Source of the DNA: Myxococcota bacterium
Lineage (GTDB): Bacteria > Myxococcota_A > UBA9160 > UBA6930
Direction: 5' to 3'
DNA: 64,000 nt
NCBI GenBank assembly: GCA_965223705.1
Contig: OZ245015.1
Coordinates: forward strand, 2,816,001-2,880,000
Positions 51,347-64,000 of this stretch are shown piece by piece; within the stretch, counting starts at the first letter, position 1, and each line of letters opens with the position of its first letter. A model generated the notes under the pieces. That model saw only the letters and a list, made by a program, of their open reading frames with translations. It ran no database searches and was not told where the DNA came from. Made by a program: the position numbers and the translations under genes.

Positions 51347-51422
51347 TGGTGGGCCGCCAGGGACTCGAACCCTGAACCGGCGGGTTAAAAGCCCGATGCT
51401 CTACCAATTGAGCTAACGGCCC
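51347..51422 (-). tRNA. tRNA-Lys (anticodon TTT), CCA encoded
   Basis: GGGCCGTTAGCTCAATTGGTAGAGCATCGGGCTTTTAACCCGCCGGTTCAGGGTTCGAGTCCCTGGCGGCCCACCA; 76-nt cloverleaf. Confidence 0.96.
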
Positions 51423-52468: not shown

Positions 52469-53653
52469 ATGATCGACTTCAGCCCGCCCGACGAACTCCT
52501 GGCCCTGCGCGACAAAGTCGCGACGTTCGTCCGAAACGAAATCGTCCCCATGGAGAAGGACCCCCGCCAAGGACCTCATGGTCCCGAGGAATCGCTGCGC
52601 CAGGATCTCGTCGGCAAAGCACGGGACGCGGGGCTCCTCTCCCCGCACGCGCCTGCCGAATGGGGCGGCCTGGGTCTCGACAACATCGGCAACGCCCTGG
52701 TTTTCGAGGCCGCCTGTTACTCGCCGCTCGGCTCCTTGGCCCTCAACATCCAGGCCCCCGACGAGGGAAACGTCCACCTCCTCGACAAAGTCGCGACGGA
52801 CGCGCAAAAGGAACGCTGGCTCCGACCGTTGGCCGAGGGCCGCATCCGCACCGTCTTTCACATGACGGAGCCCGACGGCGGCGCGGGCTCGGACCCGTCG
52901 CTGCTCCGAACCGAGGCGCGAGAAGACGCCGACGGGTGGCTCATCAACGGACGGAAGTGGCTGATCTCCGGAATCGGTGCCCCGGGCGTCGGCCTCAATA
53001 TCATCATGGCGAAGACGCTCAGCGCCTCGGGTGAAGACCTCGGAGCATCGATGTTCCTCCTCGACGGCGAAGTTCCCGGGATGGAGATCGTGCGAACGCT
53101 CGACACGATGGACAGCAACACCGTCGGCGCGCATTGCGAAGTCACCTACGACAACGTCCGCGTCCCGAAAGATCAGATCCTCGGAGAGCCCGGGAAGGGC
53201 TTTCGCTACGCCCAGATTCGCCTCGCACCCGCTCGGCTGACCCACTGCATGCGCTGGCTCGGTCAGGCTGTCCGGTGCCACGAGATCGCCGTCGAGTACG
53301 CGCGAACCCGCACGGCGTTCGGCAAGCCGATCGGTGAGCACGAAGGGGTTGGGTTCCAGCTGGCGGACAACGAGACGGACCTGCATCTGGCACGCCTCGC
53401 GACCTGGCACTGCGCTTGGGTCCTCGATCAAGGGCACAAAGGCCGTCGCGAAAGCAGCCTTGCGAAAGTCTTTGTGTCGGAGGCGTTGTGTCGTGTCGTC
53501 GACCGATGTGTCCAGGTACTCGGCGGCTTGGGCATCACCGCCGATACGATCGTCGAGGCGACGTACCGCGACATCCGCGCGTTTCGTATCTACGACGGCC
53601 CTTCCGAAGTCCACCGCTGGGCGCAGGCGCGCGACATTCTTCGAGGGGCCTGA
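52469..53653 (+). CDS. Acyl-CoA dehydrogenase (ACAD10/11, LvaC-like)
   Basis: NIQAPDEGN, MTEP, GSDP, NGRKW, RL.PARLTHCMR, RIYDGPSEVH. Confidence 0.92.
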   Translation: MIDFSPPDELLALRDKVATFVRNEIVPMEKDPRQGPHGPEESLRQDLVGKARDAGLLSPHAPAEWGGLGLDNIGNALVFEAACYSPLGSLALNIQAPDEGNVHLLDKVATDAQKERWLRPLAEGRIRTVFHMTEPDGGAGSDPSLLRTEAREDADGWLINGRKWLISGIGAPGVGLNIIMAKTLSASGEDLGASMFLLDGEVPGMEIVRTLDTMDSNTVGAHCEVTYDNVRVPKDQILGEPGKGFRYAQIRLAPARLTHCMRWLGQAVRCHEIAVEYARTRTAFGKPIGEHEGVGFQLADNETDLHLARLATWHCAWVLDQGHKGRRESSLAKVFVSEALCRVVDRCVQVLGGLGITADTIVEATYRDIRAFRIYDGPSEVHRWAQARDILRGA

Positions 53654-53663
53654 TCGAAGCCGC

Positions 53664-53692
53664 TTGACTTTCGCCTTTCATTCGCCTAGGTT
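53664..53692 (+). promoter_or_regulatory. Sigma70-type promoter
   Basis: TTGACT-N17-TAGGTT, not followed by any credible + strand CDS. Confidence 0.65.
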
Positions 53693-53697
53693 GATCC

Positions 53698-54206
53698 GGT
53701 CTCGAACGAGGGCTTTGGCCATTGGGTCCCCCCCTCTGCTTCAGAGGCCCCGCCGTACGGGTGAAGGTCCTGCTGCAGGCCAGAGCGACCTGGTCGAGAC
53801 GCCACGCTCCGCGGAGGCGGGCGGGCAACAGTCGGTGGGTTCGCACGGGTTAGATGCCCCGGCGAACGCCCGCAGAGGAAGCACGGATACGTGCCCCTCT
53901 GCCGCTAGATCTCGGTATCGGACTTGGGTCGAGATCTGACGGGGTGACACCACTCGCCGAGCTGATCCCGCCCGCTCCGCGGAGATCGGCGCGCGACCCC
54001 TCGCCCACCTTCGAAAACTTTGCGCTAGCGGCTGCTGCCACCGCAGGTGAGCGCCGCGAGACCAGCAGGATGTCCCGAGGCCGTGGCGGGTGGGGGTACC
54101 GCGCGCAGTTCCGCAGCGCCGGCGACCCGTACGAAGGATCTCGTAACCCCGTCGGCGCGAGGATGTTTGAGCACGGTGCCCCCACCCGCCACGGCCCTAC
54201 CTCGGT
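53698..54206 (+). ncRNA. Candidate large structured non-coding RNA (unassigned family)
   Basis: Nested long helices, e.g. 53768-75/54063-70, 53807-25/53967-84 and 54079-101/54174-96; G-U pairs favour the + strand; lies downstream of the promoter. Confidence 0.55.
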
Positions 54207-54224
54207 CTTCCGGGTAGAGCGCCG

Positions 54225-54656
54225 CTAAGTCAGCGCCTGCGCGACGTTATCGAGCGACACGTTGTAGAGCGTGGCGAAGATTTCGCGGATCTCTTCCTCG
54301 GGCTGGCCCACCGGCTCCCAAGTACTGCTCCAGGTCACTCGTGAAGTTTGGTCGCCCTCGGCGACCACCGTCATTGTGGCGACGTAGTCGACAACGGGTA
54401 GCGGACTGTCTCCGATCGCCGCGTAGCGAAAACTCATTCCGTCGTCGTCGAACGCCAAGAGCTCTTCGCTGATCCGACCGGTGAAGCCCGTGGCCGGGTC
54501 GAGATCGGCGCTGCGAACGGAGCCTACGCCCTCGCCCTCCACCTGGACCGGCCCGACGCCGGGGATCCACTTGTGCGTCCCACCCCATTCGGAAACCATC
54601 GCCCACACGCGCTCGGCCGGAGCCGAGATTGTCTTCGTCACACTGACTTTACCCAT
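54225..54656 (-). CDS. SRPBCC (polyketide cyclase/dehydrase-like) protein
   Basis: I.APAERVW......HKW.PG, GVGSVR, E.L...D, F.Y, VTW. Confidence 0.85.
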   Translation of the reverse strand: MGKVSVTKTISAPAERVWAMVSEWGGTHKWIPGVGPVQVEGEGVGSVRSADLDPATGFTGRISEELLAFDDDGMSFRYAAIGDSPLPVVDYVATMTVVAEGDQTSRVTWSSTWEPVGQPEEEIREIFATLYNVSLDNVAQALT

Positions 54657-54666
54657 GGCTCGAAGC

Positions 54667-55971
54667 CTACCCCCGCGGTTTTGGAAACGGCGCTCGCCGG
54701 CAAATGGTCTGATCGCGACCCGGGCCGATCGAAATCAGATCGACCGGTACGCCGGCGAGCACTTCGATGCGCTCGATGTACCGTTGCGCCGCGGCGGGCA
54801 ATCCGTCGAACTCCGTCACCCCGGTGATGTCTTCCGACCACCCCGGCATGACCTCGTAGACCGGTTTCGCCCGCTCCACTTCACCCAACGTCATCGGGAA
54901 GGATTCGCTCCGCTTGCCGTCGATGTCGTAGGCGACGGCAACGGGAACCTCATCGAGCCCGGACAAGATATCGAGCTTGTTGACCGCCAGAGACGTGAAT
55001 CCGTTGACGATTGCCGCCTCTCGCAACACCACGGCGTCGAGCCAACCACAGCGGCGCCTGCGGCCGGTGGTGGCGCCGAATTCGTGCCCTCGCTCGCCGA
55101 GCCACTCGCCCCGGGGGCCGGTGTCCTCGCTGGGGAACGGGCCACCCCCGACTCGCGTCGCGTAGGCCTTCGTAATGCCCAGCACGCTGTCGATCCGCGT
55201 CGGTCCGACTCCGGACCCCGTGCACACGGCACCCGCCACGCAGTTCGACGACGTCACGTAGGGATAGGTCCCGTGGTCGATGTCGAGGAAGGTTCCCTGG
55301 GCACCCTCGAACAGCACGTTCTTTCCGTCGCGGAGGGCGCGATCGAGGATGTGGCCGGTGTGATCGACGTAAGGCGCCAGGCGCTTGCCGAGTTCGAGGC
55401 ACGACTCGATCAGCCCTTCGACATCGATCGGTGAGTCGCCGTGGACATCGCGCAGCTCGCGGTTCTTGTCGGCACCCGCTGCCGACAGGACCTCGCGCAA
55501 GCGCGCCGGCTCGAGCAGATCCGCGACCCGAATTCCCCGACGCGCCACCTTGTCCTCGTAGGTCGGACCGATGCCGCGGCCCGTGGTGCCGATCGCACTC
55601 CCGCCGCGCGCGCGTTCACGCGCCTGGTCGAGCGCCACGTGCCAATCGAGGATGACGTGGGCGCGCCCGGACACGCGTACCCGAGACGGATCGCGGAGCA
55701 CGCCGCGTCGCTTGAGCTCGTCGAGCTCGTGCAGCAGTACTTCCGGGTTCACGACGACGCCGGGGCCGATCAGATTGATTGTCCCGTCCTGCAGTACACC
55801 CGACGGGACCACGTGGAGGACCGTTTGCTCGCCGTCGACCACCAACGTGTGGCCGGCGTTGTTGCCGCCTTGGAAACGCGCGACCAGCTGTGCCCGTAGC
55901 GCGAGCCAATCGACGATCTTGCCCTTCCCCTCGTCTCCCCACTGCGCCCCGACGGCGACGAGAGCGGTCAT
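54667..55971 (-). CDS. purA: Adenylosuccinate synthetase
   Basis: GAQWGDEGKGK, QGGNNAGHT, GTTGRGIGP, EGAQG, GATTGRRRRCGW. Confidence 0.98.
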   Translation of the reverse strand: MTALVAVGAQWGDEGKGKIVDWLALRAQLVARFQGGNNAGHTLVVDGEQTVLHVVPSGVLQDGTINLIGPGVVVNPEVLLHELDELKRRGVLRDPSRVRVSGRAHVILDWHVALDQARERARGGSAIGTTGRGIGPTYEDKVARRGIRVADLLEPARLREVLSAAGADKNRELRDVHGDSPIDVEGLIESCLELGKRLAPYVDHTGHILDRALRDGKNVLFEGAQGTFLDIDHGTYPYVTSSNCVAGAVCTGSGVGPTRIDSVLGITKAYATRVGGGPFPSEDTGPRGEWLGERGHEFGATTGRRRRCGWLDAVVLREAAIVNGFTSLAVNKLDILSGLDEVPVAVAYDIDGKRSESFPMTLGEVERAKPVYEVMPGWSEDITGVTEFDGLPAAAQRYIERIEVLAGVPVDLISIGPGRDQTICRRAPFPKPRG

Positions 55972-63089: not shown

Positions 63090-63451
63090 AAGTTCTCCCT
63101 TGGCTGTGTACGCGCTCGCCGATAAGTGCCGGCGAACGGTACCGGTAAGCCTCTACCCCATCAAATACTGCGCGTCCGGCCTGTCGCGATTCGGCCCCAG
63201 CCGCGACCCGCGGGGCACCCGCGCGCAACAACGGGCTAGACCTACAAAAACTCGCCCAGTTGTCCGATATTTCAGCGCGGAAACGAACCCCCGCTCAGTG
63301 TGTGGTCATCAACGCTAAAAGATCTCACCGACCTGCCGAATTGAACCCGCTCTCGGCGGTTGGGTTCGAACGAATACGGCGCGACGTGACCACTAAGGTT
63401 TACAGGCGACGGCTCCATCCGCGGGCCGCGTAGGGAGTCGACAGCAACACG

Positions 63452-64000
63452 ATGGCAACTCCGCTCCACTATCACCGGCGTGCGAAGCGCGTCTCCCCGA
63501 TGCGCGCTCGACGCATCGGGGGTGCGGCGGCCGTCGCTGTGGGTGCGGGAGACTTTCCGGGAATCGAGATTGCCGAGCCGCAGTCCGTCCGGGGCCGTCT
63601 GATCAGTGGCAGTGTTGCGCTCGCACTGCATGGCGCCTTCATCCTGGCGCTCGTCCTCGCCGCTTGGCTGATGCCCGAGCAGGTCGAGGAACGCATCTTC
63701 GAGTTGACGCGGATTCAAGACAACGTGGCCCGGGAGGAGCCGGCCCCGGCGCCTCGCGTGATTGCGGAATCCAGCGGTCGCTTCAACCCGGCGCCGATGG
63801 CCGTTCCCGCGCAAATCCGAAGCCCCGCCGTGATTCAGCGCGCCGCACCGGTCGTCCAGGCGCGCAAGCTCGAAATGGCTTCCGTCGCGACCGTGAAAGC
63901 GCCGCGAGAAGTGCAACGCGCGGCCCGGGTGGTGGAACATGCGCGGGCGTTCCAGTCCGCGGTCCAGGTGACAACGTCTCCCCTCGAGGTCGACGCGAAC
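63452..64000 (+). CDS. TonB-like energy transducer, N-terminal part (runs off window end)
   Basis: Manual translation from ATG 63452: TM with S...ALH motif (SVALALHGAFIL), then a Pro/Ala-rich linker; divergent from exbBD. Confidence 0.6.
   Translation, partial: MATPLHYHRRAKRVSPMRARRIGGAAAVAVGAGDFPGIEIAEPQSVRGRLISGSVALALHGAFILALVLAAWLMPEQVEERIFELTRIQDNVAREEPAPAPRVIAESSGRFNPAPMAVPAQIRSPAVIQRAAPVVQARKLEMASVATVKAPREVQRAARVVEHARAFQSAVQVTTSPLEVDAN

Follow-up and report, generated by a model that had tools for sequence, protein, structure and literature searches.

The largest intergenic gap in the window, i.e. the whole stretch of 64,000 nucleotides analysed here from a Myxococcota bacterium, raises the question of what it contains and whether its contents are one thing or several. 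A preliminary description had put the gap at ~570 bp and had read it as a single stand-alone RNA of ~500 nt, transcribed on the + strand from a sigma70-type promoter and possibly of a new family. By rough gene calls it is indeed the largest gap, with 571 bp (53654-54224). It is flanked upstream by an acyl-CoA dehydrogenase gene on the + strand, which ends at 53653, and downstream by an SRPBCC gene on the - strand (54225-54656, Pfam), which ends at 54225 and is thus convergent, as had been described. The identical gap sequence is present in short-read contigs from four runs of one sample. By the same calls, the next-largest gap of the window measures 410 bp (63090-63499).

No protein appears to be encoded in the gap, in agreement with the earlier claim that it lacks a credible coding sequence. 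With a codon model trained on this genome, all six frames were non-coding, scoring -0.23 to -0.53 as compared to +0.15 to +0.22 for four real genes. An ORF of 124 codons (53854-54228) scored -0.07 and was matched neither by Pfam nor by an HMM of small proteins. When compared to shuffled sequences, as had been proposed, the gap folds far beyond the shuffles on both strands (z -8.05 on +, -6.42 on -). Rfam assigned no family at threshold to the region, tRNA being the sole threshold match in the whole window. RNase P and SRP RNA were rejected as identities, since neither has an Rfam match here and both were located elsewhere in the genome, together with its tmRNA.

However, the gap is composite: next to a probable non-coding RNA of ~350 bases it contains an unrelated dispersed repeat of 155 bases. 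The repeat (54061-54216, + strand) is palindromic, intergenic and REP/MITE-like, and BLAST and profile searches found it in 12 full copies (E 1e-35 or better) and two to three partial copies in this genome. Each of the remaining 11 full copies lies between convergent ORF ends, as judged with frames of at least 100 codons, a permissive test in GC-rich DNA. Copies that align with ours are also present in the relatives G008 and G060, and 12 of 39 consensus pairs are changed on both sides in a compensatory manner. The 23-bp rod at 54079-101/54174-96 (pairing probability 1.0 in the ensemble), previously taken as a piece of the unique RNA, belongs to this repeat; the strongest hairpin in the gap is merely a repeat. 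The stand-alone RNA of the preliminary description is supported for the 5' 350 nt, but not as a unit of ~500 nt. Its suggestion that dispersed copies would reveal a MITE applies likewise to the 3' 155 nt only, whose rod occurs in multiple dispersed palindromic intergenic copies, while the 5' part is single-copy.

The flanks of the repeat are stop-codon CTA/TAG ends with no clear target-site duplication, a Y1 transposase (PF01797) was not found in the genome, and Rfam gave nothing at threshold but tRNA on 10 repeat loci. The repeat resembles REP, ERIC, BRE and MITE-like elements in being multi-copy, palindromic, located between genes and subject to compensatory changes. Its sequence is unlike the BRE copies in the three sequences compared from the supplement of PMC3110155. 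Contig C1 of this genome (G000) has other structured intergenic repeats (at 1500885, 3779690 and 4047550-4047770), which include a further family of rods with a design akin to ours, a tandem repeat next to tRNA-Ser, and a pair of palindromic elements of ~400 nt around one gene (907500-907900 and 908900-909290).

The single-copy part (53698-54050) retains a strong fold without the repeat, with z -5.11 on + and -4.79 on -, and its core (53797-53995) reaches -7.59 and -7.15, respectively. Since these values are strongly negative on both strands, folding energy alone cannot choose the strand. Three parts can be distinguished on the + strand. The 5' domain (53698-53800; z -3.65 on +, -1.80 on -) is a long irregular hairpin with a run of seven Cs at 53728-53734, the first four of which are predicted to be mostly unpaired. 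It is followed by a core rod (53800-53991), which by helix probabilities closes a junction of three hairpins (53841-65, 53872-902 and 53903-41). The 3' tail (53992-54060; z 0.25) is, by predicted accessibility, a loosely paired C-rich and A/U-rich stretch with a hairpin at 54028-57.

Most local helices of the hierarchical fold that had been drawn by eye reappear in the ensemble. The 18-bp helix 53807-25/53967-84 has a probability of 0.93-1.0, the helix 53832-40/53952-60 of 0.68, and the hairpins 53872-902 and 53906-38 of 0.96-1.0; the hairpin 54028-57 is also supported. The stem GGCGGGCGGG (53816-25), which is discussed below as a family feature, pairs with 53967-76 inside the core rod. Two elements of that fold do not survive, as the outer helix (53768-75/54063-70) and the GCCCCG/CGGGGT helix both have probabilities of about 0.00; the 3' arm of the former falls in the edge of the repeat, and 53841-53865 forms its own hairpin in place of the latter. 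When the region is folded without the repeat, 53698-703 pairs with 54058-63 (probability 0.96). One frame at 54013-54033 (+) reads ENFALAA, like a tmRNA tag, with neither a stop codon nor a tRNA-like domain; this is possibly due to chance.

A sigma70-type promoter precedes the folded region at 53664-53692 (+ strand), with -35 TTGACT, a 17-nt spacer and -10 TAGGTT exactly as the preliminary description gave them (PWM score 47.3), and transcription would start near 53698. A consensus promoter scanner called 0 sites in 53000-55000 and thus left this promoter uncalled. In its spacer, between -35 and -10, lies the direct repeat TTCG-N7-TTCG (53670-53684), a probable LexA operator. A match of 33 bases between this promoter and a relative prompted a class-wide pattern search, in which the promoter-plus-box pattern was found in 82 of 225 class genomes (at most 3 mismatches), as compared to 4 matches for a reversed control. 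Invariant are TTGAC, then the two TTCG halves separated by seven T-rich bases, and finally TA.

The box at 53670-53684 is the second-best in this genome (29.3 bits), between an unnamed gene (29.7) and a PA0069-family radical SAM gene (29.2), followed by an imuA-like gene (27.7), dnaE2 (27.2) and one more (25.8). The lexA gene of this genome (C1 4128427-4129026) has a weaker box (17.8 bits), one of several matches of similar score that may be due to chance; the box also precedes lexA in G150, G164 and G176. Class-wide, the promoter-plus-box is found ahead of lexA and dnaE2 as well as radical SAM genes of the PA0069 family and a large number of long proteins with an HNH motif. Since the box precedes lexA, imuA, dnaE2 and PA0069 radical SAM genes and recurs in 82 of the class genomes, and since Caulobacter has a LexA box that is likewise a direct repeat with this period, TTCG-N7-TTCG is very likely the LexA operator of this lineage, to which LexA would bind. 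In Caulobacter crescentus the LexA box is the direct repeat GTTC-N7-GTTC (PMC9578287), with the same 11-bp period and a common TTC core; the present box differs in its TTCG halves and T-rich spacer, and was deduced from genomes alone. As would befit a member of the SOS regulon, the candidate RNA shares its probable operator with DNA-damage genes, and this box overlaps the promoter. Two more strong LexA-type boxes were noted before unnamed genes of ~500 aa on C1 of G000 (2806579 and 726468).

Is this promoter a local peculiarity or part of a conserved locus? The DNA of most pattern matches, a few at contig ends being left out, was studied together with purA of 30 of the 33 family genomes, which gave 128 unique sites. 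A divergent tRNA upstream (35 sites) or a convergent purA downstream (28 sites) was found at 42 of them, 21 having both, and all 35 upstream tRNAs are tRNA-Lys UUU; the count of 42 is a lower bound because the available flanks were limited. In the window, tRNA-Lys(UUU) lies on the - strand at 51350-51422, 2.2 kb from the promoter, with the EamA and acyl-CoA dehydrogenase genes between, and the downstream marker is formed by the convergent SRPBCC gene and purA (54225-54656 and 54667-55971, - strand, Pfam). By their gene order, the 42 sites are one conserved locus, composed of a divergent tRNA-Lys, an SOS promoter and a convergent purA block. Within the bacterium's own family, the promoter is within 1.5 kb of purA in 7 of 30 loci, two further cases being found in additional sequences. 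In L055, the nearest relative examined, the interval between the same genes lacks the element.

What follows the promoter varies. At 14 of the 42 locus sites an SD-led ORF stands directly behind it, and at the 28 others, here called RNA-type, no SD-led ORF directly follows, a few possibly having an ORF after the stem. In RNA-type loci the distance from the promoter to the end of the convergent gene is often 146-345 nt. Depending on the lineage, this SOS promoter appears to drive either a small protein or a structured RNA.

Among the ORFs directly behind the SOS promoter is a family of small proteins of 97-176 aa that start acidic, carry a TNSPGC motif and end in sequences of the VRxDAW...DWALPF type (L426, L427, L372, L373, L438, L439, L371, L374 and L375; e.g. 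L468:1564-1977, + strand). It has no Pfam or NCBIfam match, was not found in G000, and is a candidate SOS-induced small protein. Several ORFs starting 'MTMALW...' at related loci were rejected as genes, as they are antisense shadows of an EEP gene. The long HNH-motif proteins, which may be DUF222-like, are many (620-700 aa, with a C-terminal HNH motif), and have a LexA-box promoter and a common short leader. They occur in several copies per genome in varied surroundings (L493-L512; e.g. L498:109-2073, + strand) and not in G000; yet Pfam gave no match, and NCBIfam a weak match in the HNH region only. In one family (L317, L318) the SOS promoter is followed by RNA of a different form; in L318 the Moco RNA motif of Rfam matches below threshold (30.4 of 36 bits).

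The RNA-type loci share features beyond the promoter. A paired GCGGGCGG stem (motif G[CT]G[GA]G[CT]G[GA]) is present in 18 of 28, ours included, as compared to 0-2 in eight shuffles, 4 of 39 HNH-type sites and 3 of 44 other sites; CCCC near the start was found in 23 of 28, as compared to 8-14 in shuffles. Both motifs were chosen after inspecting the sequences. Among the 27 RNA-type loci other than ours, 15 fold at z < -2 (median -2.33), whereas SOS protein genes do so in 4 of 27 cases (median 0.01). Covariation was seen in an alignment of 13 short-hairpin relatives, outside which our sequence stands: 8 of 13 pairs are changed on both sides, 95% of cells pair, and 0 of 500 shuffles match this. 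The alignment holds 16 G-U versus 3 A-C cells, favouring the promoter strand, and most members have a C-rich loop. A model built from these hairpins matched in 14 of 151 genomes, its seven new matches being two true locus members and five chance matches in coding DNA.

Six loci of a sister genus have a fold of 270-300 nt, in which both partners differ in 19 of 62 pairs, although the covariation term of this rough alignment is unfavourable. By eye their order of parts matches ours, namely a C-run, a hairpin, a rod with the shared stem, and a branched apex with an AGATGC loop. Rfam gave nothing at threshold except tRNA on 20 related loci.

The preliminary description had proposed to collect homologs by BLAST; in 225 class genomes the unique part yielded short matches only, those inspected being chance matches in genes, and no sequence homology of the RNA body was detected. 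A single-sequence model of the body was negative over 41 genomes, neither the sister-genus HMM nor the short-hairpin model matches it, and its pairwise scores with other loci (mean z 0.31) did not exceed those of controls (0.45). Since all direct tests of homology were negative, the family membership of our copy rests on the promoter, the position and a stem of 8-10 nt. Phage and plasmid collections gave no match or E about 0.5, three patterns gave 0 matches in viral contigs, and a metagenome scan with a 15-mer gave none that extended among the at least 119 loci listed. No paper on the RNA, the box or the repeat was found in a literature search, which covered subscription journals sparsely. 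A bioRxiv survey of intergenic clusters (2026; 10.64898/2026.10.21.760802) may list the family in its supplements. Among other candidate identities, a retron msr-msd was rejected, as the sole reverse transcriptase match is far away (C1 3636337); so was an internal deletion of an HNH-type gene, as the region has no likeness to HNH-type proteins, whose 3' ends show no such stem.

Taken together, 53698 to ~54055 may well give rise to a structured small RNA that stands alone, is repressed by LexA, belongs to an undescribed family and is the form taken here by a class-wide SOS locus between tRNA-Lys and the purA block, a reading for and against which the scales are evenly balanced. The computed support consists of the promoter and box, the occurrence of the latter at core SOS genes, the conserved locus, the non-coding character, the folding and the covarying stem in relatives. 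A possible course of events can be described as follows. LexA on the spacer would block RNA polymerase until DNA damage leads to RecA-driven LexA cleavage, upon which the RNA would be made. The product of ~350 nt would be stable, may close on itself (53698-703 with 54058-63) and would end at or in the repeat (54061-54216), which sits where both this RNA and the convergent SRPBCC-purA transcript may end. The stable stems could protect the RNA and present C-rich single strands (the 5' C-run, a C-rich loop or the tail), and these could bind the G-rich ribosome-binding regions of target mRNAs in the manner of 6C RNA, independently of Hfq, so that translation would be damped during repair. This pairing with target mRNAs, suggested by analogy, is held more tentatively than the RNA itself and is somewhat doubtful. 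Hfq was not found in this genome, and in a scan of 4181 rough start regions with the C-rich seeds the best duplexes were no better than those of shuffled seeds.

The nearest parallel is 6C RNA of Actinobacteria, which in Corynebacterium glutamicum is LexA-repressed and linked with the response to DNA damage (PMC5014011), and which in Mycobacterium tuberculosis pairs with mRNAs through its C-rich loops, no RNA chaperone being needed (PMC6486639). Both are LexA-linked small RNAs of GC-rich hosts, as predicted here for ours. However, 6C has ~80 nt and two C-loops, while the present RNA has ~350 nt, one 7-C run and a branched rod, and belongs to another phylum; its box lies inside the spacer, that of 6C upstream of -35. 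Rfam gives no match to 6C, and instead of two stem-loops with at least six loop cytosines each there is one partly paired 7-C run. Long structured RNA leaders behind a LexA-controlled promoter also occur at tisB/istR-1 and dinQ/agrB. At the present locus, by contrast, neither a short hydrophobic ORF nor an antisense partner was seen. A LexA-controlled promoter is likewise reported for these E. coli SOS type I toxin loci, and 6C, agrB and istR-1 are the direct LexA-target small RNAs named there (PMC5014011).

The fold may instead be a former 5' leader or terminator that has lost its job together with the small protein gene of the SOS promoter. The protein gene is still behind the promoter in two genera of another family, SD-led ORFs exist at 14 of 42 sites, some others have a stem before a possible ORF, RNA bodies differ greatly between families, and presence in the own family is patchy, all of which speaks for such a remnant. 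This reading is nevertheless unlikely, since the promoter and box have been retained near-perfectly (PWM 47.3), the sister genus retains a covarying fold of 270-300 nt with purA or another convergent gene directly behind, and an HMM of 14 small proteins found no match in our region. Alternatively, the rod of ~190 nt in the core could bind a protein as a decoy or scaffold, e.g. as a 6S-like bait for sigma70 RNA polymerase or as a CsrA sponge. The model would suit a genome that has CsrA and in which searches with Rfam and class-specific profiles, and at the zapA-ygfA and class-typical anmK sites, found no 6S, as well as a stem that retains its sequence along with its pairing. It would suit less well the many members that are hairpins of ~55 nt and the fact that only two of five GGA triplets are largely unpaired. 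The class 6S model gives no score, conserved 6S motifs are missing, and on inspection 6S is also absent at anmK in all five other family genomes checked, which together make protein binding distinctly improbable. 6S RNA (RF00013) has a rod of similar length; ours differs by the lack of an Rfam or class-model match, a branched apex and an SOS promoter. A relocated 6S was rejected on the same grounds, as class and family 6S profiles give the region no score.

The convergent arrangement at 28 of 42 sites raises a third reading, in which damage-induced transcription would meet the end of the purA block head-on and lower its expression by antisense or collision, the stem being a two-way terminator. 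Short forms with the stem near the convergent stop codon, some with a T-rich tail, could be so understood; yet the gene directly opposite varies (EEP hydrolase, SRPBCC, purA and others), a terminator needs no conserved stem sequence, 5' C-run or 300-nt fold, and here the repeat is already at the junction. An effect in cis thus seems a rather slim prospect. Slimmer by far is the idea that a tmRNA-like degradation tag (ENFALAA, 54013-54033) is encoded or mimicked, or that the whole gap is one mobile element. In contig C1, read in all six frames, the pattern [DE]N[YF]ALAA is indeed found at just two places, the present one and the true tmRNA tag, and the first 20 nt resemble the leaders of SOS-controlled HNH-motif genes. 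However, no stop follows the tag, the likeness to the genome's tmRNA (score 57) is close to that of shuffles (48.8 +/- 7.5), ARAGORN at a lowered threshold missed the tag, and other loci are on inspection without tag-like codons. As for a mobile element, the 5' part is single-copy and unlike HNH-type proteins, the 3' ends of which have no such stem.

If the LexA-repressed RNA is accepted, it would add a candidate family from an uncultivated Myxococcota-like class to the few small RNAs known as direct LexA targets. The probable SOS box of the class is defined along with a partial regulon (lexA, imuA, dnaE2, PA0069 radical SAM genes, long HNH-motif proteins and a small unnamed protein family), and one locus is singled out at which a single kind of promoter is followed now by an RNA gene, now by a protein gene. 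A bolder and improbable scheme suggests that at this class-wide SOS locus a non-coding RNA takes the place of a small protein in some lineages and vice versa in others, the RNA itself doing the job, and that ours is the largest form, a DNA-damage RNA of 350 nt and of a new family. If true, its job may be e.g. to pause division or replication, or to bait RNA polymerase or another protein via the GCGGGCGG stem.

A separate observation concerns 6S RNA, which in the class is divergent from anmK (L259-L268, L129-L139). The gene is gone from the anmK site in G000 and five other genomes checked, where the promoter remains. Own-family 6S forms of 219-244 nt, missed by Rfam, were found by the class model.
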